A stretch of DNA of 64,000 nt from an uncultured Methanosarcinales archaeon (GCA_964445165.1 CAYUJZ010000001.1:1591-65590); one strand, 5' to 3'. Positions 18,434-55,368 are shown, counted from the stretch's first letter. Notes: a model not told the origin generated them from the letters alone. Translations and numbers: made by a program.

Positions 18434-19879
18434 TTAGTAATGAACAATATCAAATCCATAAACATGATAATAGGTTATAAGGTACTTAAAATCCATGCCT
18501 AATGCAAGCCCTCTTAATACATACCTAAAAAAGTTAATGAGATATTTAAGGTTTTGTTTTCTGAGAATTACTCCTATTCTTCTTGGGAGAGTCTGGCTGT
18601 ATGCCTTTGCCTGAAACATCTCAACATGCCGAGATGACAAGCCAGGGTAGTCTATCACTGCATCAAAGCTTATGTTGTTTGCTGTTTTAGATTTCCTTAG
18701 GTTAATCTTTCCGCCTTCCTTTATAACCAGTTCTTTGGATTCGTCAGTGAAAGGCTTGAAAACAAAAAACACGCTCCTGTCGCTTTTAATCTCTTTTGCC
18801 AGGCTTAATGTCTGGCGGAGTGTTGCCTTTGACTCTCCTGGGGCGCCAAGGATAAAGTATGCAGTTGTGCGGATTCCGTACTTTTTTGTGAGCCTGAACA
18901 CTTCTCTTACTTTTTGGGTTGAAAGCTGCTTGTTCATGATAAGGTTTCGGATTTTCTCGTTTCCTGACTCAACACCAAGCCTCAATATTTCGCACCCCGA
19001 ATCAGACAACAGCCTTATTTTCTCTTCATCAAGGTGATCAACTCTTGAGAACATTGAATATTTCTGCTTTTTTGTGTCTGCTGCTTTCTTATACTCTTTA
19101 CAAAACTCCTTCAGCCATTCTCTGTCCATTGTAGGGATCTGGTCAAAAAGCTGTATCAGCTTAAGGCCTTTATTCTGGTACTTATTCCACTGCCAGGCAA
19201 GCTCTTCTGCCAGCCTTTTTGGTGACATTGACCTGAAGTACCTGCCCGGGATTGCCTTCTTTATCCCGCAGGACTCGCAAAAAGTGCAATTGTATGTGCA
19301 GCCTCTTGTCCCAATCTGGTAAAGCATTCCGAGGAAATAGAAGTATTTGTCCAGGTCTTTCCATAGGCTCCAGTCCAAATAAGGCAGTGAATCAAGGTCT
19401 GAAAAGAAGTGACCAGGGTTTCTGGTTTCCTTGCCTTTTGCCTTAATCCAGACTCCGCTAATCCTGGCCAATTCATCGGGAGAGTTCAGGGAATCGAGGA
19501 TTTTGCAGATGGTGTCATCTGCATCACCTACTACAAGAACATCGCAGTAGCTGAGATTAAAGAGCTCCTCAGGATGCACTGATGCATGGTAGCCTCCGTA
19601 AAGGACTTTTGTTTTTGGCGAGATTCTTTTTACTTCTTTGCTTATTTCTTTTATAAACTGCAGGTAAAGCGAGTTAACTGAAAACCCTATTGCATCTGGC
19701 CTGTGCCTGGCAATATGCTCTCTCAAAAGCCTTCTCCATTGCTTTCTTCTGAAGGTAAAGTCAAGAATGGCTGCCTTGTGTGTGCCTTTTTTATTTACAA
19801 TTGTAGCAAGGGTAGTTATCGCTATATCTAGTGCGCTAAAATCACCGCCCAGAACCGGATTCACAAAAGTTATCTTCAT
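18434..19879 (-). CDS. class-B (B12-binding) radical SAM enzyme
   Basis: N-terminal B12-binding-like domain with YGGYHASVHPEE (GGxHxS/T), then GCTYNCTFC. Confidence 0.8.
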   Translation of the reverse strand: MKITFVNPVLGGDFSALDIAITTLATIVNKKGTHKAAILDFTFRRKQWRRLLREHIARHRPDAIGFSVNSLYLQFIKEISKEVKRISPKTKVLYGGYHASVHPEELFNLSYCDVLVVGDADDTICKILDSLNSPDELARISGVWIKAKGKETRNPGHFFSDLDSLPYLDWSLWKDLDKYFYFLGMLYQIGTRGCTYNCTFCESCGIKKAIPGRYFRSMSPKRLAEELAWQWNKYQNKGLKLIQLFDQIPTMDREWLKEFCKEYKKAADTKKQKYSMFSRVDHLDEEKIRLLSDSGCEILRLGVESGNEKIRNLIMNKQLSTQKVREVFRLTKKYGIRTTAYFILGAPGESKATLRQTLSLAKEIKSDRSVFFVFKPFTDESKELVIKEGGKINLRKSKTANNISFDAVIDYPGLSSRHVEMFQAKAYSQTLPRRIGVILRKQNLKYLINFFRYVLRGLALGMDFKYLITYYHVYGFDIVHY

Positions 19880-21243
19880 TCTAAAAGCCTTTTGAGCTTG
19901 TAAAAAAAGGTTTTTCTTTTTAAGGTTTGCCTTATGGATGTGGAAATCCTTTTTGGATGGAGATAGAAAGCCATAAAGGCATAGGTTTTTAGTAGCCTGA
20001 GAAGGGGTCGGGGAATGCCTGAAAGAGAGTCTTTTGAGCTTGTATAATAGCTTGAGAACGAACTATTCTTGCTTGCACTTCCTAAATATGTTCCTGGAAG
20101 CGCTGTGAGAACGCTGAAAGTTGCAAAATCCAGGCCTAAATTAGAGATTTTATTGATTTCTCTTACAGTTTCCCTTATTCCCTTGTTAGGAAAGCCAATC
20201 ATAAAAAAGCCAAGAGTTTTTATGCCAGCTTTGTTTAGGACCCGAATTGACTCTCTAACTTCTTTATGAGGAAGTACTTTTTTCAGCAGTTCGTTCCTAT
20301 TTTTTTCATCTAATGTTTCAATCCCCAGCCTTACTTCAACACATCCTGCCTTCTTCATAAGACTGGCTAATTCTGGTTTTACCAGGTCAGCCCTTGTATT
20401 GCATATCCAAGTGAATGAGATTCTTTGGGCTTTTTTAAGCTTAATAAGAGAATTGCAGAAATCAATTACATGTTCCTCATTCACAGTGAAGGAATCATCA
20501 TGAAGCATAAAGGAGTTTATATTGTGGTGTTTTTTCAGGAATTTCAGCTCTGAAAGTATAAAACTTATTTTTTTATGTTTTAATTTCTTTCCAAAAATGT
20601 TTTCCACTGTGGGCTGGCAGAATTTGCATTGGAAAGGGCATGAGCGTGAGGATGAGAAGCTCACTCCTCTTCGTTTTTTCAGGTAATCTAGGTACGGCCA
20701 GTGCCTAATGTAATCTTCAAGGTTTGGGATTATGCCCCAGTCTATCCTTGGGATTTCAAGGTTTGGAAAAAACTCTCTTTTTGTTTTGAGGATTTTCCTG
20801 TTTTTCCTAAAGCAAAGATTGGGAAGCTGCTCAAGCCTGCGATTCTGAAAAAGGGCTGAAATAGAGCCTGAATCTGCAAAGAGTTCAATTATGCTCTTTA
20901 ATGTTAACTCTCCCTCGCCCAAAACCGCAATGTCCGCGATGGTGAGGGATTTTTCTGGCTGTATTGTTGGGCCTGGGCCCCCTATTATTCTTAAAGCACT
21001 GATTTTTGAGAAAAAATGCCTGTTTTTGTTTAGATGGTATTCCATAGAAAAACTATTTGCAGAGAAAGCTACGATCTGGAACTTTTTAGAGAGAATCTCT
21101 TTGGAGAGTCTGTCAAAGTACCAAAAAGAAAAATCCTGCTCTTTCTTAAGGTAAGAGATTAGTTCAAGCAAGCCAGCGTTCACATGGCCTGTTTTTAAAC
21201 CCTGGTTCAGATCAACAAAGGCTATTCTAGGCTTTTGCCGCAT
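19876..21243 (-). CDS. class-B (B12-binding) radical SAM enzyme
   Basis: IIGGPGPT motif, then SCPFQCKFC; its stop overlaps the start of the upstream gene. Confidence 0.8.
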   Translation of the reverse strand: MRQKPRIAFVDLNQGLKTGHVNAGLLELISYLKKEQDFSFWYFDRLSKEILSKKFQIVAFSANSFSMEYHLNKNRHFFSKISALRIIGGPGPTIQPEKSLTIADIAVLGEGELTLKSIIELFADSGSISALFQNRRLEQLPNLCFRKNRKILKTKREFFPNLEIPRIDWGIIPNLEDYIRHWPYLDYLKKRRGVSFSSSRSCPFQCKFCQPTVENIFGKKLKHKKISFILSELKFLKKHHNINSFMLHDDSFTVNEEHVIDFCNSLIKLKKAQRISFTWICNTRADLVKPELASLMKKAGCVEVRLGIETLDEKNRNELLKKVLPHKEVRESIRVLNKAGIKTLGFFMIGFPNKGIRETVREINKISNLGLDFATFSVLTALPGTYLGSASKNSSFSSYYTSSKDSLSGIPRPLLRLLKTYAFMAFYLHPKRISTSIRQTLKRKTFFYKLKRLLE

Positions 21244-22340: not shown

Positions 22341-22847
22341 CTATTGCTCACAAACTACTGCAATCGGTCGTGCCCTTACTGCTTTGCGAAGCAGAAGGTT
22401 GACCTTGAGAAGACAGAGGGGCTTGAGGGCGAGCTCAAGCCTTCGATTTTGAAAAAGGGCTGAAATAGAGCCTGAATCTGCAAAGAGTTCAATTATGCTC
22501 TTTAATGTTAACTCTCCCTCGCCCAAAACCGCAATGTCCGCGATGGTGAGGGATTTTTCTGGCTGTATTGTTGGGCCTGGGCCCCCTATTATTCTTAAAG
22601 CACTGATTTTTGAGAAAAAATGCCTGTTTTTGTTTAGATGGTATTCCATAGAAAAACTATTTGCAGAGAAAGCTACGATCTGGAACTTTTTAGAGAGAAT
22701 CTCTTTGGAGAGTCTGTCAAAGTACCAAAAAGAAAAATCCTGCTCTTTCTTAAGGTAAGAGATTAGTTCAAGCAAGCCAGCGTTCACATGGCCTGTTTTT
22801 AAACCCTGGTTCAGATCAACAAAGGCTATTCTAGGCTTTTGCCGCAT
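22341..22847 (-). pseudogene. truncated duplicate of the N-terminal 138 aa of the B12-rSAM gene at 19876-21243
   Basis: The N-terminal 138 aa (codons inside duplication copy 2) are identical to the 19876-21243 product, then it diverges into 30 unrelated residues and stops. Confidence 0.75.
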
Positions 22848-30362: not shown

Positions 30363-31571
30363 TTACTCAGCCTTCGCTGCTTCTTCTGCCTGCCCTGCTT
30401 CTTCAAGCTCGGGCTGCTCGGGCTTTTCTTTTGGCACCGAGCCATCTATTATGCCGAGCGAACTGACATAAGCATAATCATTAACCTTGATTGCAGAGAG
30501 CTGGTAAAGCGCTTTCTCAACTGCCTTAACAAGGTTAAACTTGTTCCTGGCAAGGCCAGATGCATTAACCCAGATGTCTTTTATCCCGGCCTTATCGAGT
30601 ATTTTCTTCACCTCTTTCTCTGCAACAATTCCATTGCCTTTTGGCGCTGGCAGAAGCGTTACCTCTACAGAGCTGCTCTTTCCGTACACCTTAAACGGAA
30701 TCGAGTGGGGCTCCTTGCAGCCGCATTCCCATGAGCCGCAGCCCCTCTTAATTTTAATAACATTAACCTTGGCCTGCTTTGTTGCCTTTTCCCTTGCAGG
30801 CACTGTATCTTTTGACTTGCCGAATCCTATGCCGACATGGCCGTCGCTGTCACCTACAACCGCAACCGTGGCAAACCTCGGCTTGTTTCCTTCAGCAGTC
30901 TTTTTCTGTGTCTGCTTGAAAACCCTTCTCTTTCCGCCACCGAACTTTCCCTTTGCCTGCCCTGTAAGCAGAAGCTCAGAATCCAGCTCCGGCAGCAGGA
31001 TTTCCACTATCTCAGGTTCAAGGATTCTCAGGCCTTTTGAAAGGATATCATCAAGATTGGTTATCTCCTTGCTCTTTACCTTTTTCCCAAGGGTTGTCCT
31101 GGGTGTCCAGTCATCAAAAGAAGCAAGCCTGTCCCGTGGCTTGGCTTTTTCCGGCTTTGTCACTGTTTCTTCGTCTTCCTTAAATTCATCGAGGACTTCT
31201 TTTGGGAGCGGGCTTGCGTTTTCATCAGCATTGTCATCTGTCTCATCATCAGTTTTTTCTGCTGTCTCTTCCTCAGGCTCAGCTTTGTTTCCCTTTTTTT
31301 TCTTTTCTTCTTTTGCTTCTTCAGGCTTGGGCTCTGCCTCAGGCTTCTGTTCCGGCTTTTTCTCAGGCTCCGAGCCTTTTTCCTGCTTCTGCGCTTTGGG
31401 CTTGGCTGCCTTGTTTTCTTTTTCCACTTTCTTTGCCTTCTCCGCTTTCTCTTGCTTTTGAGCCTCTGCAGCTTTCTGCTGGGATTTCGGCTCTTCAGCA
31501 GCAACCGGTTCCTGCCCTGCTGCTGCCTCTGGCTGCTCCTTCTTGGCCTCTGCAGGCTTTTTTGCTAACAT
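30363..31571 (-). CDS. rps5: ribosomal protein S5 (uS5) with a ~190 aa K/E/A/P-rich N-terminal low-complexity extension and an acidic C-terminal tail
   Basis: The conserved core runs LASFDDWTPRT...GKFGGGKRRVF...VAVVGDSDGHVGIGFGKSKD...LLPAPKGNGIVA. Archaeal S5 is normally about 210-240 aa, and this one is 402 aa. Confidence 0.85.
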   Translation of the reverse strand: MLAKKPAEAKKEQPEAAAGQEPVAAEEPKSQQKAAEAQKQEKAEKAKKVEKENKAAKPKAQKQEKGSEPEKKPEQKPEAEPKPEEAKEEKKKKGNKAEPEEETAEKTDDETDDNADENASPLPKEVLDEFKEDEETVTKPEKAKPRDRLASFDDWTPRTTLGKKVKSKEITNLDDILSKGLRILEPEIVEILLPELDSELLLTGQAKGKFGGGKRRVFKQTQKKTAEGNKPRFATVAVVGDSDGHVGIGFGKSKDTVPAREKATKQAKVNVIKIKRGCGSWECGCKEPHSIPFKVYGKSSSVEVTLLPAPKGNGIVAEKEVKKILDKAGIKDIWVNASGLARNKFNLVKAVEKALYQLSAIKVNDYAYVSSLGIIDGSVPKEKPEQPELEEAGQAEEAAKAE

Positions 31572-44922: not shown

Positions 44923-47900
44923 TCAGTATTTTACTGAAAGCCTTGTTTCTGTGTCCTTGGATATGAGGAAGCAGGAGAAAGGGTACGCCCTGTTCTTCAT
45001 GTCCTGCCCCAGAATAATTATTCTCAGGTTCCTTGCCTTAGGCAGCTCAAACCCGTAAATTGTACCGCAATAGGTCTGCCTTGGGCTAAGCTCAGTTATT
45101 GTCCTGTTTATTCTTATTGCCGAGTATGACCTGCCTGAGACAAACTTCTCCGGCAGGTCAAGCCTTGTGGCTATTGAAGAGAGATTGCCAAAAAGAAGAG
45201 GAGCAAGGCTGTCTTCCAATACAACTGCATAAAGGGTATTGGGGTGGCTGGAGTATATTATATCCAGGCACAGCTCAGCCTCGTGCGCATAAGCCCTGGG
45301 AATGGATGTCAGGTTAAAGCTCAAGACTGGATAAAAGCCCAGGCCGTCTGCTCCTGAATTGGATTTCGCACAAAAGAATGACGCATTGCTGCCAAGGTCC
45401 TGGGAGCAGGTTGGGCAAAAGCTCACAAGCTCTGCTGATATGTTAGTAAAAACTACTGTCTCTGTAGGTGTTGCATTCTTGGTTATGTTCATAAAGCTGA
45501 AGCGGATAACGGAATCTTCATCAGGAACAGAAAGCTCTAATTCCATCTCAGCACACTGGCCGGTCTCTGCAATATAGCCTTCTTCATTTTCTTCAAAGAA
45601 TATATTAAAGCTCACAGCATCTTTGCTTTCTGGCTCTGGCTCATCCTGAACAGATGCAGAATCAGTTTGAAAGCCGTCCTGCTGCTCCGGCTCTGGCTCA
45701 GAGCCTGTTAAGTTGTCTGCCTGGTTATGCTGGATGGTTGAGTTTGCTTCCAGTTCAGATAGATCCGGCTCAGATGAATCTTCACCGGCTTCAGCCAAAT
45801 CTGCTGGTTGAGGCTCAGCAGAGTTAGTTAAGTTTCCGGCTCTCTCTGTTTCGTTTATAAAGATGCTTTCAGGGTCTGTCTTGCTTTCGGCGGGCTCAAC
45901 TGATACATTGTTTGCAACTGGCTCACGAAGCCCTCTGCACACAATTGCCTTAACCTCAAATTCAGATTTGTTGTGGGAAGATATAAGGAGCGTATCGTTA
46001 AACTCTGTTTCAAAACTCACATTCCATGAGCCATTAATCCAGGAGCCTGATGAGAGGGAGAAGGTATCGTATATTGAGTAGATTGAAAATGATGACACCT
46101 GATAAGGCAGAATCTCATTGAATGTAATTCTGGCTATGCTGTTTGAGGCTGTGGGCTTGGTAAAGCTTATTTCATTGGTTGGGGAAACTATCTGGTATTG
46201 GTGAGCAGGCTTTTCTTCCATCTCAATAATAAAGTCGTAATAGGTAATGTTATCAAGGTTTTTTAACCTGAACTCTTTATAATGTGTGAGGCCGGTAACT
46301 ATTGAGTAATTTGACTGTGTCCTTATTCCTCTGGTGTAATATGTTATAACTATTTCCTTTGTGGCAAAGGGGTCATAGAAATCAGTTACATGAATTATTA
46401 AAGAGTCAGGGGCTTCTGTGACTGAAAACCCTTTCTGCTGGATTTGCCCTGACTCTTTTTCAGAGCCCTGGCTAAGGTTAATTGCTGATTTGTTATGCAT
46501 TGCCTCTATCTTTGGCTGGTTTTCTAGGGAGGAATTTTCTGGTTTTTGTTGTGCTGGACTTCCTGGCTCAGTGTAATCCCGAGAATCGCTTTCGGTCTCT
46601 TCGGAATCGGGTGAATGCAACTCATGCAAAACTGCAGGCGAAATCAAAGAAAGCTTTTGCCTGTTGGAAGATACAGAGATGTTCTCTGCATGCGTGGGTA
46701 TGGACACTGAGATTGTCTTGTATTTCCAGTCTCTCTCCTGGTTGGTTACCCTGATGGCTTTTCTCCATTCTGCTGGCTGGTCAAGCTCAAGCTTGTACAG
46801 GTCTGCCAGCTTTTCATCAAAAATCTTCTCCGATATGTTGTCAGCGATGTCTTCATCTGTTATATTCATATCATCTGTTATATTAACGGAAATGTTAAGC
46901 TCCTCCGGAGAATAGGTATAATTCACATAAAATTCCAGCGAGGTAATGTTTATTGAGTCGAATGCCATTACCTTTACTCTTCTCTCTCCTTCAAAGGGTA
47001 TGCTTGCATAAAGATTAAGCTCTGACTGCTCAACAAAAGAGACTACCGGGAAGTCTGATACAGCAAGGAAAACCAATGTGTCGTTGTCTGGATCACGGAA
47101 GGTTGTATTTAAGTCGATTGAAAATGTTTCATTTTGCTTAAGCGAAAGAAATGAGATGTTTCCTATAATCTCTGGCGGGCTGTTTGGCTCTTCTGCAGTT
47201 TCTTCAACTTCTGTTTCATTTAAAAGTTGCCTAAGGGCAGCGTCTTCGACAAGGGTTATATTGAAGGCAACACTCTCTGTTTGGTTAAGGTTTGAGCAGA
47301 ATATCCTAAACCGCGAGGTGGCATTAATGTTTTTTATTGGCTCAATTATCGTTAATGAGGAGTTCTCATAAACTGAGAGAAGCGAGAAATTGTAGGCGTA
47401 TGTAAAAATAAGGGATGAATTGCTCCAGAAGTATACGCTTCGGTTTATTTCTATTTGGTCGCCAAAAGCAATCTCTATATCCGGGATTGGCTTTGAAAAA
47501 ACAGGGACAGACAGATTGTCAAGAGAGTGGTTTTCATCCAGAGGCTGATGCTCGTCGCCTATGCTTATGTTAAGTGTGGCATTATGCCGAGCAAAGACAT
47601 AGAAGATGTTTGAGTGATAGGTGTTATTATCATAATGCGCAAGCAGCTTCAGGCTGAAGTTTCCTTCTTTTTCAGGCCTATATGAAAGAAACCTGTCAGA
47701 TACAGAAGCGGTCAGGTTGTCGTAATTTATCAGCATGAATGTTGTGTTTGTGCGGTTGAATGCCGAGCTTAAGCTTAGGTATGCTGTTGTATTTGTGCGG
47801 GCTGTCTGGTTTCTCACAAAAAAGGCCAGGTTAATCTCTTCAGGAGTTTCTTCTGTAATGTTTAGCTCCGGCTTTTCAGTCTCATTAATGAACGTCTCAT

Positions 47901-48792
47901 TGTAATCTGGCTGTGTTTTGTTTATTTCCGGCTCTGTTATGTTAAGCTCTGGAGGCTCTGATTCTGTCTCGTTGATAGTTATATTCTGGATTGGCTCTGT
48001 TATGTTTATAGAAATATTGTCAGTTATGCCTTCTGAAATGTTGCCTGTTATGTTGGGAATAATTGGAGGGGTTAAGTTTAATTCTGTATCGTTAATTGAG
48101 ATGTTATCGATTTCCGGCTCGCTGATATTGCCTGTTAAATTGTCTGTGATGTTTATTAAGGAGATGTTTTCAACTATGCTGGATTCGTTTTCTGTAAGGT
48201 TTACTGTGAGGTTGTCTTCCACCGGCAGGGATATTTGCTCTTCTTCCTGATCGCGGCTTCGCCCTGGGCGGATGGTTATGCCTTCGGGCTCTTCTGTTTC
48301 CGGCTCTTCCAGCTCTTGCTCTGGCTGAGGGTGCTCTTCTGGCTCTGCAACAACTGGCTCGGCTGGCTCTGATTCTGCAACTGTTTGGTTCTGCTGGGCT
48401 AAAGAGTCTGTGAAGAGCAGGCCTGTTAAAGCGTCTGTGCCGAGATCTGAATCTGCAAGAAAAGGTATTAAAAAAGCAAACATAAGCAAAGCTGCTGCCA
48501 CTGAAACCATCTTCCGCTTCTTTTCCTGCTGGCGCAGCTCGGACTGAAGCGTGGACTTCTCAAGGGCATATTTTCTCATAAAAGAGTTGTAGTGCGCTAT
48601 TGTCTCTACCCTGTCCCTGCCTCCCAACTGCTTTCTTAGCTCTTTTTCATACTCTTCGTGTGAAATCTGCCCTTTGGCATACTTTGAAAGAAGGGAATTT
48701 GCCAGGGAATTTGCTTTGGCTTTCTCATCTTCGCACTTCTTAATCTTGCTTTTTAGCTCCTTAAGCCTTGCTCTCTTTTCTGAAATGCCCAT
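44923..48792 (-). CDS. giant (1289 aa) type-II-oriented surface protein: cytoplasmic K/E coiled N-terminus, one TM helix, acidic linker, then a large ectodomain saturated with N-x-S/T sequons
   Basis: TM segment MVSVAAALLMFAFLIPFLA at about residues 95-113. The stretch NLTVNLTENESS..NISLINITDNLTGNISEPEIDNISINDTELNLT..NITGNISEGITDNISINITEPIQNITINETE shows the sequon density; more than 100 sequons overall. Confidence 0.6.
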   Translation of the reverse strand: MGISEKRARLKELKSKIKKCEDEKAKANSLANSLLSKYAKGQISHEEYEKELRKQLGGRDRVETIAHYNSFMRKYALEKSTLQSELRQQEKKRKMVSVAAALLMFAFLIPFLADSDLGTDALTGLLFTDSLAQQNQTVAESEPAEPVVAEPEEHPQPEQELEEPETEEPEGITIRPGRSRDQEEEQISLPVEDNLTVNLTENESSIVENISLINITDNLTGNISEPEIDNISINDTELNLTPPIIPNITGNISEGITDNISINITEPIQNITINETESEPPELNITEPEINKTQPDYNETFINETEKPELNITEETPEEINLAFFVRNQTARTNTTAYLSLSSAFNRTNTTFMLINYDNLTASVSDRFLSYRPEKEGNFSLKLLAHYDNNTYHSNIFYVFARHNATLNISIGDEHQPLDENHSLDNLSVPVFSKPIPDIEIAFGDQIEINRSVYFWSNSSLIFTYAYNFSLLSVYENSSLTIIEPIKNINATSRFRIFCSNLNQTESVAFNITLVEDAALRQLLNETEVEETAEEPNSPPEIIGNISFLSLKQNETFSIDLNTTFRDPDNDTLVFLAVSDFPVVSFVEQSELNLYASIPFEGERRVKVMAFDSINITSLEFYVNYTYSPEELNISVNITDDMNITDEDIADNISEKIFDEKLADLYKLELDQPAEWRKAIRVTNQERDWKYKTISVSIPTHAENISVSSNRQKLSLISPAVLHELHSPDSEETESDSRDYTEPGSPAQQKPENSSLENQPKIEAMHNKSAINLSQGSEKESGQIQQKGFSVTEAPDSLIIHVTDFYDPFATKEIVITYYTRGIRTQSNYSIVTGLTHYKEFRLKNLDNITYYDFIIEMEEKPAHQYQIVSPTNEISFTKPTASNSIARITFNEILPYQVSSFSIYSIYDTFSLSSGSWINGSWNVSFETEFNDTLLISSHNKSEFEVKAIVCRGLREPVANNVSVEPAESKTDPESIFINETERAGNLTNSAEPQPADLAEAGEDSSEPDLSELEANSTIQHNQADNLTGSEPEPEQQDGFQTDSASVQDEPEPESKDAVSFNIFFEENEEGYIAETGQCAEMELELSVPDEDSVIRFSFMNITKNATPTETVVFTNISAELVSFCPTCSQDLGSNASFFCAKSNSGADGLGFYPVLSFNLTSIPRAYAHEAELCLDIIYSSHPNTLYAVVLEDSLAPLLFGNLSSIATRLDLPEKFVSGRSYSAIRINRTITELSPRQTYCGTIYGFELPKARNLRIIILGQDMKNRAYPFSCFLISKDTETRLSVKY

Positions 48793-48905
48793 TTCCTGCT
48801 TTTTTCTCGGGCTTTGTTTTTATAAACCTTTCTCAAAAGCTGGGTTCCTGAATGCCTGATTCTGAGAAAACCTGAAACTAGCACAATCTTTTTATACTAA
48901 CAGGA

Positions 48906-52920: not shown

Positions 52921-54273
52921 ATGCATGCAAAAAGATGCACAAAAGGCAGGGAGTATGCAGCTTTTGCAAGCTTCGGCTTTCTGGCTTTGCTTCTTGCGGC
53001 TTCTTATGGGTATGCACAGGTGAATCAGAGCATAAGGGTTAATGGATGCAGGGAAATAAACCAGTCCGGGACATACCAAATAAGCAATGACATCGCGGCT
53101 ACTGCAAAGGAAAAGGCCTGCATAACTGTAAAAGCAAGCAACGTGCTAATTGATGGAAATAACAAAAGGCTTTATGGATATAACGAGTTTGGCTCAAAAA
53201 CCATTTTTGTCTGGGGAAATTCAACAAGCAAAATAAGAAATGTAACCATCAGGAATGCTAAATTCATAGAAGACTATGCAGGAGTATATGCCATTGACTC
53301 GGAAGATGTAAGGCTGGTATCCCTTTCTTTTGACAAAAGCATTATTGGAGTGCATATTGTTAACTCTTCAGGTGTTTCTGTATCAAAAAGCAGATTCAGC
53401 ACTGAGCAGAATGCAATTGTTGGCGAAGGCAGCAAAGACATATCAATTTTTGGGTCTCAGGTAAGCTCTTACAGGGGAAACGGAATCAGGCTCAAAGGGT
53501 GCTCCGGGCTAATATTATCCGATAATTTTCTTAGAGATATTCCTGGTGTTTCCCTTGAGTTTCAGGATAGCAGGGATATTGCTGTTAAGAGGTGCGCCTT
53601 TGAGGCAAATTTAAGGGGTATTCAGGCAACCGGGTGCGAAAACATAACTATTTCTGAAAGCAGGCTCTTAAGCAACCTTGAGCATGGGCTTTCCCTTCAC
53701 TCCTCGCAGGATATTGGTGTTTCTGGAAACAGCTTTCTGGGAAACTCCGTGGGCATATTCACCCAGCAGGCATCAGGAATCACACTCTCAGACAATGCTT
53801 ACCTGGAGAATAACTTTGCTGTAATGATAAGAAACTCCAGCAGCGTGCTTGCCGGGGATATGGATATAAACAATAACACAAATGCTTATGTTGTTCACGA
53901 AACAGAGGGGTTTGAAGGATTTCTTTCCAGTTTTAACAGCAGCTTTAGGGATTTCTTCTTCAGCAGCAGCAACGGAAACATCTCTGGCACTCTGGAACAA
54001 TTTAAGAGTGCTTCTATAATTGCAGAAAGGTCAGACATAAGATTTATTGTAGAAAGCAATGGAAACATTACTATGGAAACAACCCTGGAATTTACTTTTG
54101 AGGAAGAAGAGGAAGTTCCTCTTAATGTTTCCATAAAAGAACAGCGTAGAAGAGACTTGGCAGGGTTTTTTACAGCAAGAAACCTGCTTATTTTAGGGGT
54201 TTCAGTAATCCTGATTTACCTTCTTTCATCAGAAGCAAAAAGAAAAAAAAGAAGGAATAAAAAGAATAAATAA
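52921..54273 (+). CDS. secreted right-handed parallel beta-helix (NosD/pectate-lyase-like) repeat protein with a C-terminal TM anchor and basic tail
   Basis: Signal peptide; repeated ~22-aa units (IRNVTIRNAKF.., VSVSKSRF.., IRLKGCSGLILSDNF..); C-terminal LLILGVSVILIYLL then RKKRRNKKNK. Confidence 0.6.
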   Translation: MHAKRCTKGREYAAFASFGFLALLLAASYGYAQVNQSIRVNGCREINQSGTYQISNDIAATAKEKACITVKASNVLIDGNNKRLYGYNEFGSKTIFVWGNSTSKIRNVTIRNAKFIEDYAGVYAIDSEDVRLVSLSFDKSIIGVHIVNSSGVSVSKSRFSTEQNAIVGEGSKDISIFGSQVSSYRGNGIRLKGCSGLILSDNFLRDIPGVSLEFQDSRDIAVKRCAFEANLRGIQATGCENITISESRLLSNLEHGLSLHSSQDIGVSGNSFLGNSVGIFTQQASGITLSDNAYLENNFAVMIRNSSSVLAGDMDINNNTNAYVVHETEGFEGFLSSFNSSFRDFFFSSSNGNISGTLEQFKSASIIAERSDIRFIVESNGNITMETTLEFTFEEEEEVPLNVSIKEQRRRDLAGFFTARNLLILGVSVILIYLLSSEAKRKKRRNKKNK

Positions 54274-54284
54274 TGCTTTCTCCT

Positions 54285-54686
54285 TCAGCTGGCTTTTTTG
54301 TTTTTCTCCTGCTTCTTATCCTGGGAAGGTGCTTTTTGCTTTTGCTTCTCGGGATTTGCCAGTGCCACATTTTCCACAAGCCTCGAAATCTTTGACTCCA
54401 GCTGCTCTGTTTTCAGTGCCTGCCTGATTAGCAGGTAAAACAATACAATTACCGATAGGTATAGAAGAAAGTCTGAGCCCCTCTGGATTCCAAAAAGCGA
54501 GGCTGCTGCAAAGGAAAGCTGGGGAAACAACCCAACAATTATCATAACAAGCCCGCCTGCAGAGAAAAGAAGGTAGCTTTCCTTTTTTAGCTTGTTCCAG
54601 GACAGGTTCAGCCTGGAAAAAACAATAATGAATACTCCCAATACAATCAGCAGAATGCTAAAAGGTGTCATTTTTTTATCCTCCAA
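54285..54686 (-). CDS. small 2-TM membrane protein, DUF2304-like
   Basis: 133 aa with two TM helices, FPQL motif and a C-terminal coiled segment; overlaps the GT2 gene by 11 nt. Confidence 0.45.
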   Translation of the reverse strand: MEDKKMTPFSILLIVLGVFIIVFSRLNLSWNKLKKESYLLFSAGGLVMIIVGLFPQLSFAAASLFGIQRGSDFLLYLSVIVLFYLLIRQALKTEQLESKISRLVENVALANPEKQKQKAPSQDKKQEKNKKAS

Positions 54687-55368
54687 ATATTTTTTTGTTT
54701 ATCATTCTGATAACAATCTTCAGGGCGTTTGATGTTTTTTGGCCTTTGCTCAAACTTTCCTCTGAGTAGGTAATGGTTACCGGAACCTCAACAAACCTGA
54801 TTCCTTTTTTATGGATTTCGTCAAGTATCTCTGATGCGTGCGCCATGTCATTTATCTTTATCTCTATCTTTGAGGCTGCTTTTCTTGACAGCGCCCTGAA
54901 GCCGTTGTGGGTGTCAGTAACCTTTATTCTGGATATTAACCTTGTGAAAACAACACCTGCCTTGAGGAAAAGCTTTCTTGAGCGCGGTATATTCACAGCA
55001 GCGCCTTTGCTGATAAACCTTGACCCAAGCGCTGCATCTGCCTTGCCTTCAATTATTGGCTTAATCAGCCTGGAGATTTCACCTGCCTGATGCTGGCCAT
55101 CCCCGTCAAAAGTAACAATGATGCCTGCCCCTGCTTTCAGGGCGTAACGAATTCCTGTCCTGAGGGCTGCACCTTGGCCTAAGTTTACCGGATGGGTTAG
55201 CACAGTCGCCCCTGAAGCGAGCGCAGCTTCTTTTGTCCTGTCTCTGGAGCCATCGTTAACTACAACAATATTCTGATAGCCATGGCTTTTCAGGTCCGAA
55301 ATGGCTTTACTGATTCTCTTATCCTCGTTGTATGCTGCAACAACCACAAAGATTTCTGGGGATTTCAT
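54676..55368 (-). CDS. family 2 glycosyltransferase (dolichyl-phosphate sugar synthase-like)
   Basis: VVVAAYNEDKRI, VVVNDGSRDRT, TFDGDGQH (DxD region). Confidence 0.85.
   Translation of the reverse strand: MKSPEIFVVVAAYNEDKRISKAISDLKSHGYQNIVVVNDGSRDRTKEAALASGATVLTHPVNLGQGAALRTGIRYALKAGAGIIVTFDGDGQHQAGEISRLIKPIIEGKADAALGSRFISKGAAVNIPRSRKLFLKAGVVFTRLISRIKVTDTHNGFRALSRKAASKIEIKINDMAHASEILDEIHKKGIRFVEVPVTITYSEESLSKGQKTSNALKIVIRMINKKIFGG

Follow-up and report, generated by a model that had tools for sequence, protein, structure and literature searches.

A sequon-dense cell-surface protein encoded by an uncultured Woesearchaeota archaeon, and its small unannotated family

The gene described here lies on a 64,000-nucleotide stretch of DNA from an uncultured archaeon (GCA_964445165.1, CAYUJZ010000001.1:1591-65590), referred to below as the window, in which all positions are counted from the first nucleotide. 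It is a complete coding sequence on the minus strand at 44923..48792 and specifies, ahead of its stop codon, a polypeptide of 1289 residues with a calculated mass of ~145 kDa. The open reading frame (ORF) is real; the position of its start codon is kept in the orthologues, and its location and length are exactly those given in an earlier annotation made from the sequence alone (the original prediction). The genomic setting is archaeal, with SRP54, Kae1/TsaD, Nop56/58, fibrillarin, AMP phosphorylase, ThiI and an archaeal ribosomal protein cluster as neighbours, and the nearest named relative of the protein comes from a metagenome-assembled genome (MAG) of a 'Candidatus Woesearchaeota archaeon'. 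The product is a cell-surface protein of an uncultured DPANN (Woesearchaeota) archaeon; judged by its sequence it is almost certainly an exported N-glycoprotein.

The protein contains 73 sequons of the form N-x-S/T in which x is not proline (44 NxT and 29 NxS). The original prediction had put their number at more than 100, which is the count of all asparagine residues (100); the sequon runs that it quoted, NLTVNLTENESS and NISLINITDNLTGNISEPEIDNISINDTELNLT, are present at residues 194-241. Shuffled versions of the protein had 16.7±3.6 sequons, with a maximum of 31 in 5000 shuffles, and the observed 73 corresponds to z≈16; the comparison with composition that had been proposed as a check thus returned a clear excess. 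Control motifs that differ in direction or register were at or below expectation ([ST]-x-N, 19 occurrences; N-[ST], 16; N-x-x-[ST], 7), as were the analogues with glutamine or aspartate in place of asparagine (Q-x-[ST], 4; D-x-[ST], 3). All 73 sequons are located C-terminal to the transmembrane (TM) helix, and none of the three cytoplasmic asparagine residues is part of a sequon. The 51 remaining ORFs in the window have a mean density of ~0.3 sequons per 100 residues (z, -2.0 to 3.1), whereas that of the 1289-residue protein is 5.7. Within the protein it is 16 per 100 residues at residues 191-320, 7.4 at residues 321-725 and 3-5 elsewhere in the ectodomain.

The positions of the sequons are also conserved. 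In an orthologue with an overall identity of ~57-58%, 62 of the 73 sequons occupy the same aligned column, and 19 are common to all five aligned family members (29-58% identity). Among the residue types of the ectodomain, only cysteine and tryptophan are more conserved than asparagine, of which 34% is invariant, versus 11% overall. Regarding the residues within the sequons, an over-representation of threonine at position +2 was seen in all but one of the six tested members (p values of 1e-3 to 5e-2; for the exception, P0002, p=0.17), and one of isoleucine or leucine at position +1 in all six. In the window and four related genomes, a sequon excess was found only in proteins with predicted TM or signal segments: z values were 13-16 in the family of the 1289-residue protein, 2.7-3.8 in a β-helix protein and ≈7 in a 260-residue single-TM protein, and cytoplasmic proteins were at or below expectation. 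Because the excess is restricted to predicted exported proteins, it suggests an active N-glycosylation system that favours sequons on such proteins. The directional and conserved nature of the excess indicates that the sequons of the 1289-residue protein are strongly selected, and the 73 sites are probable points of N-glycan attachment.

Residues 95-113 are predicted to act as a type II signal anchor (N-in/C-out). The charges flanking this segment are +3 on the N-terminal and -4 on the C-terminal side, and the TM helix is found at residues 92-94 in every family member. The preceding 94 residues are the best conserved segment (77% identity in the 57%-identical orthologue) and show a heptad pattern (L10/L13/I17/C20/K24/A27/A31/L34/Y38), and the remaining 1176 residues, the ectodomain, are acidic (193 D+E versus 75 K+R). 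The original prediction of a cytoplasmic K/E-rich N-terminus, a single TM helix and an ectodomain is thereby confirmed, the first 94 residues being K/R/E-rich and the only hydrophobic segment lying at ~95-113, and the accompanying topology check predicts that the large part of the protein is outside the cell and not in the cytoplasm. Residues 1-94 gave only coiled-coil-type noise in Pfam and have no relatives among PDB sequences. A SHOCT domain was considered for this segment and rejected, as the match (E=0.046) occurred in one of five members and the other matches were generic coiled-coil noise. Word-index searches with residues 1-135 (48388-48792), either as a single sequence or as a five-sequence alignment, gave zero matches and also missed the 99% and 57% relatives described below, and are uninformative as to whether the domain occurs elsewhere. 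The features of the gene and its product are listed in Table 1.

Table 1. Features of the gene at 44923..48792 and of its predicted product (immunoglobulin, Ig; AlphaFold2, AF2; predicted local distance difference test, pLDDT)
Feature	Residues	Window position	Strand	Basis and remarks
TATA-like box TTTATAAAA with preceding purine-rich stretch		48818..48826	-	Read from the sequence; centre ~30 nucleotides upstream of the ATG
Cytoplasmic basic helical domain	1-94	48511..48792	-	Alignments and charge; 25 K+R, 14 D+E; no sequons
TM helix (the only one)	95-113	48454..48510	-	Hydropathy maximum 2.47 at residue 95
Conserved LTG-hydrophobic juxtamembrane motif, then variable acidic Glu/Pro-rich linker	114-190	48223..48453	-	Alignments
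Low-complexity stalk	191-320	47833..48222	-	21 sequons in 130 residues (16 per 100); length differs among members
β-rich domains A-D	321-725	46618..47832	-	30 sequons
Ig-like module B	~430-520	47233-47505	-	Big_9/Cadherin_4/He_PIG type
Ig-like module C	~535-625	46918-47190	-	Big_9/Cadherin_4/He_PIG type
Acidic/polar linker, poorly conserved	726-785	46438..46617	-	Alignments
β domain E, strongly conserved	786-955	45928..46437	-	Motifs NLDNITYY and TEFN; strands in AF2 model, pLDDT ~45-64
Variable acidic linker	956-1055	45628..45927	-	Disordered in AF2 model
C-terminal, membrane-distal all-β domain	1056-1289	44926..45627	-	Conserved; 7 invariant Cys; motif PF[AS]CF

Searches of Pfam, NCBIfam and PDB sequences with the whole protein and with its parts yielded nothing significant (0 PDB sequences at E<=0.1). 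The two Ig-like modules are indicated by an exhaustive profile search with HMMER, in which residues 320-1289 were compared with 1.84 billion representatives; 179 proteins were found at E<=1e-10, and statements on these matches refer to the best 150 of the 179. Most of them match profile positions ~215-300, and some span positions 100-305. The top matches are Big_9, Cadherin_4/5 and He_PIG repeat proteins, with E values down to 1e-65 and coordinates coinciding with residues ~430-625, so that the search for repeat-domain homologues suggested at the outset led to proteins with Big_9/Cadherin-type Ig repeats. The direct Pfam match of the modules (Cadherin_4, E=0.06) is below the cut-off. These Ig-repeat proteins carry 5-20 tandem repeats and have an ordinary sequon density (median 0.48 per 100 residues, observed/expected ~1), whereas the family described here has about two modules and a 3-4-fold excess. 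Domain E had no relatives beyond the family in the exhaustive profile search. For the stalk, a recent origin by tandem repetition of DNA was considered and rejected, as no more than four weak two-copy arrays are present.

An AF2 model of residues 320-1289 from a two-sequence alignment had a pLDDT of 28 and was unusable; for residues 786-1289, modelled with five sequences, the pLDDT was 47 overall and 50-74 in the C-terminal all-β domain. In comparisons of the latter model with three independent structure libraries, a fold like that of carbohydrate-binding module family 96 (CBM96)/DNRLRE was each time among the top matches. Foldseek matched it to the PDB entries 8wab and 7vbo at E ~1e-3, and the second-ranking match in BFVD was a CBM96-domain phage protein. 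The alignments cover 146-151 residues, so that only the 224-residue C-terminal domain can be the matching part. A DNRLRE/CBM96 sequence profile was not matched by any of five members in NCBIfam up to the E<=10 threshold (most matches above ~0.1 being dropped by the tool), nor in Pfam. Because there is no match at the sequence level, the likeness is a lead and not an assignment, and on the strength of the model residues 1056-1289 tentatively resemble a CBM96/DNRLRE β-sandwich. The known modules bind acidic polysaccharides (alginate in the case of 7vbo, chondroitin sulfate in that of 8wab) and share 11-13% identity with the C-terminal domain, whereas the seven invariant cysteine residues are particular to the present family.

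A full-length word-index search found only a 99% copy and the 57% orthologue (P0002, Woesearchaeota), probably because low-complexity words crowded the candidate list and distant members were thereby missed. The exhaustive HMMER search added the full-length proteins P0003 (1447 residues), P0004 (1407 residues) and P0006 (2012 residues), and a scan of GTDB species genomes and JGI metagenomes added L007 (1437 residues, full-length), L011 (partial, 30%) and L010 (a 100%-identical fragment) and nothing else. The family is rare and unannotated, with about seven distinct members (six full-length and one partial) in Woesearchaeota-type MAGs. All full-length members share a common plan, consisting of a conserved cytoplasmic N-terminus of ~92 residues, the TM helix, an ectodomain very rich in sequons and a C-terminal domain with seven invariant cysteine residues. 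The six full-length members have 72-154 sequons, or 5.6-8.8 per 100 residues (z 13-16 in five and 16.2 in L007), and the asparagine content of the family is 7.8-15%. No description of such a family was found in the literature on Woesearchaeota/DPANN surface glycoproteins.

Each species genome found has one copy of the gene, at a conserved position in the order Kae1–GT2–(DUF2304)–β-helix–AI-2E–AMP phosphorylase–SRP54–gene–ThiI–…–L3, in which GT2 is a glycosyltransferase of family 2. The product of the gene evolves faster than the housekeeping neighbours, with 57% versus 74-92% identity in the near genome and ~31% versus 42-72% in distant genomes; the β-helix surface protein evolves similarly fast (53% and 23-25%, respectively). 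The family is vertically inherited in Woesearchaeota.

Three of the related loci, L005 (6777-7553), L006 (6287-7087) and L007 (6898-7680), encode an extra single-TM protein of 258-266 residues between AMP phosphorylase and SRP54, which has 13-18 sequons (5-6.8 per 100 residues, z≈7) and is absent from the window and from L004. The GTDB records of L005 (CAYLQM010000008.1) and L007 (CAYQFL010000008.1) are labelled Methanosarcinales; this label is probably wrong, since the gene family and the full local synteny are common to Woesearchaeota MAGs.

Upstream of the gene, the TATA-like box is located ~30 nucleotides 5' of the ATG, and the mRNA would therefore be leaderless or nearly so. Codon usage of the gene is intermediate, its score of 0.008 being at the bottom of the range of the ribosomal proteins.

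An oligosaccharyltransferase (STT3/AglB) was not found in the 64-kb window by Pfam, by NCBIfam or by a six-frame scan for the WWDxG motif. Nearly all Archaea possess AglB, of which a DPANN type has also been described (PMC11407970, PMC8993221). The original prediction had connected the protein with supposed glycosylation machinery at 10.9-27.4 kb and with the GT2 gene at 54.7 kb. The first connection found no support: the region holds mostly radical-SAM enzymes and polytopic membrane proteins without family assignment, together with one DegT aminotransferase and one weak PMT_2 (GT-C) match, and no STT3/AglB. The second stands in part, as the GT2 (54676-55368) is of the polyprenyl-phosphate sugar synthase type (PpgS, polyprenyl-phospho-GalNAc synthase, 1e-59; AglJ, 3e-28; both below curated cut-offs) and is syntenic with the gene in all relatives, but it is not specific to the 1289-residue protein. 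It is followed by a small membrane protein of 133 residues (pair at 54285-55368, minus strand; DUF2304 in the orthologous locus L001), and the pair adjoins Kae1 in all relatives. From these profile matches it is plausible that the GT2 helps to make a lipid-linked sugar donor.

The ORF at 52921-54273 (plus strand) encodes a right-handed β-helix (NosD-like) protein that possesses a classical signal peptide as well as a TM helix at the C-terminus and a basic tail. With 12 sequons (z 2.7) it has the next-highest density in the window, and its orthologues in four genomes have z values of 2.7-3.8; it is probably a second surface glycoprotein, with canonical topology.

Two other parts of the window may be mentioned. 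In the region 5154-29439, 10 radical-SAM ORFs, of which several also contain B12-binding domains, form a cluster. Dispersed among them are genes for five polytopic membrane proteins that have no family assignment (PMT_2 and Wzy_C are each matched weakly by one of the five), for the DegT sugar aminotransferase and for a DUF362-ferredoxin protein. The 168-residue ORF at 22341-22847 comprises a B12-binding part only and may be a truncated paralogue, since its domain matches copy the N-terminus of 19876-21243. In this region the GC content is 0.34-0.40 versus 0.43-0.47, and codon usage differs more from that of ribosomal proteins than anywhere else in the window; the region may constitute an island that serves an unusual modification of glycans or lipids. 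The ORF of ribosomal protein S5 (30363-31571, minus strand; 402 residues) carries ~170 N-terminal residues of low complexity, rich in K/E/A/P, before the S5 domains.

The original prediction called the protein a major surface layer (S-layer)-like glycoprotein, a description that fails on the canonical hallmarks that could be tested, i.e., signal peptide, C-terminal anchor and family homology. A cleavable Sec signal peptide was not found, the first and only hydrophobic segment being that at residues 95-113 after the conserved charged domain, and no small-residue (-3, -1) cleavage motif after the TM helix is conserved in the family alignment. Regarding a C-terminal anchor (a TM helix or a PGF-CTERM/archaeosortase signal), there is no second hydrophobic segment, and the last residues, ...TRLSVKY, belong to a conserved β domain; no search was made for a partner protein encoded separately. 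Homology to S-layer families amounted to 0 families in Pfam and NCBIfam and 0 PDB sequences at E<=0.1. Two marks of an AglB-dependent N-glycoprotein are present, namely the predicted extracytoplasmic location of all 73 sequons and selection on the sequons (z≈16, conservation).

Among known envelope proteins, SlaA of Sulfolobus acidocaldarius, called highly glycosylated, has 31 sequons in 1424 residues, i.e., 2.2 per 100 (PMC10903991), and SlaB, which is made with a signal peptide and has its TM helix at the C-terminus, has 14 in 475 residues (PMC10903991, PMC2948927), the two giving a range of 2.2-2.9 per 100 residues. The 1289-residue protein resembles archaeal S-layer glycoproteins and their stalk partners in being a large, acidic envelope protein with β-sandwich/Ig-like domains, a helical membrane-proximal element and many N-x-S/T sites, and a glycan-shield function is presumed. 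However, the sequon density of its family is 2-4 times higher (5.6-8.8 per 100 residues, with up to 154 sites), its uncleaved N-terminal signal anchor behind a 94-residue cytoplasmic domain gives an orientation opposite to that of SlaB, and there is no sequence homology to SlaA/SlaB. In Thermoplasmatales an unordered glycoprotein layer replaces the S-layer (PMC12448462); a dense, non-crystalline coat of membrane-anchored glycoproteins would be similar at the level of the concept, but the present organism belongs to another phylum (DPANN), no homology is known, and this Woesearchaeota clade may possess an S-layer. The protein is regarded here as an archaeal surface N-glycoprotein, which is a known kind, and not as a categorically new system. 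Eukaryotic type-II and type-I surface glycoproteins possess mucin-like stalks, which are low-complexity, densely glycosylated spacers of variable length that project globular binding domains. Those stalks are O-linked at Ser/Thr, whereas the attachment here is putatively N-linked, with an Asn about every 6 residues, and the comparison is an analogy only.

The explanation that we favour, with moderate confidence, is that the protein is a type-II membrane-anchored, hyper-N-glycosylated spike or coat of the cell envelope, as are the other members of this small unannotated family of Woesearchaeota. Residues 95-113 would serve as an uncleaved signal anchor through which the acidic remainder of 1176 residues is translocated, and the basic, coiled-coil-like N-terminus would stay in the cytoplasm, a topology that the sequence itself shows; there it would probably form oligomers or tether the molecule. 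AglB from a gene in another part of the genome would then load dolichol-linked glycans onto many of the 73 sites; this step is proposed because the sequon excess is directional, conserved and compartment-specific and because AglB, including a DPANN type, is reported as near-universal in Archaea. With a sequon about every 6 residues, residues 191-320 may form a stiff, hydrated and protease-resistant N-glycan 'bottle-brush' spacer, an N-linked analogue of a mucin stalk, which would project the Ig-like β-sandwich domains and a disulfide-capable, CBM-like head tens of nanometres from the membrane. Together the molecules would form a dense coat around the cell (a glycocalyx or a functional substitute for an S-layer), and the distal head may bind glycans, either on neighbouring molecules or on a partner cell or matrix. 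A dense glycoprotein coat is the most likely function, with those of an S-layer and of an adhesin as other possible roles.

Several points weigh against this explanation. Attachment of glycans to the sequons is a prediction, no oligosaccharyltransferase is present in the window (the search being limited to 64 kb of the genome), and the role given to the cytoplasmic domain is purely inferential. Neither structural model is good (pLDDT 28 and 47), and the likeness to CBM96 comes from a domain of pLDDT 50-74 without sequence support. As a proxy for abundance, codon usage is intermediate. Expression of genes with an S-layer annotation has been reported for some Woesearchaeota (PMC11606122), and the organism may accordingly have a separate, true S-layer protein.

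The main rival to the coat is a dedicated adhesin, i.e., a spike by which an episymbiotic DPANN cell attaches to its host or substrate, the brush giving reach and protease resistance and the Cys-rich, CBM-like head binding a glycan on the partner cell or an extracellular polysaccharide. Every cultivated DPANN archaeon is a contact-dependent ectosymbiont (PMC11291902), and such a role would agree with Ig/cadherin-like modules, which are typical of adhesins, with the resemblance of the membrane-distal domain to polysaccharide-binding CBM96/DNRLRE in three fold searches, and with a protein that evolves faster than its gene neighbours and has variable linkers and a stalk of variable length. However, that fold comes from a low-confidence model without sequence support, and the C-terminal head, instead of being the most variable part, is one of the best conserved. 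Adhesin repertoires are usually variable and multi-copy, whereas all related genomes found carry this gene once and in strictly the same gene order, and no host is known for the lineage. We consider a dedicated adhesin possible but doubtful.

A true paracrystalline S-layer subunit, which would self-assemble into a regular lattice as the cell wall and be held by an unusual N-terminal instead of a C-terminal anchor, appears rather improbable. Being large, acidic, rich in β-sandwich/Ig domains and rich in sequons, the protein has much in common with known archaeal S-layer glycoproteins (PMC10903991), and it is the product of a core, single-copy, fast-evolving envelope gene with a strong-looking TATA box near the start codon. 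Against this, it is without a cleavable signal peptide, a C-terminal TM or sorting signal and S-layer family homology (Pfam, NCBIfam, PDB sequences), the canonical arrangement of signal peptide and C-terminal anchor is found in the β-helix protein encoded nearby, codon usage gives no clear sign of a top-expressed gene, and ~300 residues of flexible linker and stalk would be better suited to a brush than to a lattice. That the sequons are an unused by-product of N/S/T/I-rich low-complexity composition in an AT-rich genome is very improbable, and the controls in effect exclude that composition alone accounts for them, since, in spite of the Asn-rich family (7.8-15% N) and the low-complexity stalk, composition-preserving shuffles yield 4.4-fold fewer sequons, the reversed motif, shifted registers and Q/D analogues are without excess, sequon positions are conserved above background also in the folded domains, and the excess is limited to exported proteins.

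A more far-reaching form of the favoured explanation, which we hold to be unlikely, is that the clade builds its envelope, instead of or on top of a canonical S-layer, from a new subunit that combines a signal anchor and cytoplasmic coiled coil, an N-glycan 'mucin' with 70-150 occupied sites and a lectin-like tip.

To our knowledge, experiments have so far revealed nothing about the Woesearchaeota cell envelope, and DPANN envelopes as a whole are poorly understood. With this family, one Woesearchaeota clade has a concrete candidate for its main surface glycoprotein, which is conserved and easy to recognise. In sequon density (5.6-8.8 per 100 residues, 16 in the stalk) the family exceeds by a factor of 2-4 the S-layer proteins that commonly serve as examples of heavy glycosylation, and this is combined with a reversal of the usual topology. 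If the sites are occupied, the protein would be a natural N-linked analogue of mucin domains, a demanding substrate for studying how archaeal AglB handles closely spaced sequons, and an antibody or lectin target by which the uncultured cells could be visualised or enriched. Should the clade indeed use it as a new envelope subunit, it would be among the most densely N-glycosylated prokaryotic proteins known and would connect the surface coat, across the membrane, to a partner in the cytoplasm. A CBM-like tip, if it is genuine, would suggest that cells make contact with one another through glycans.

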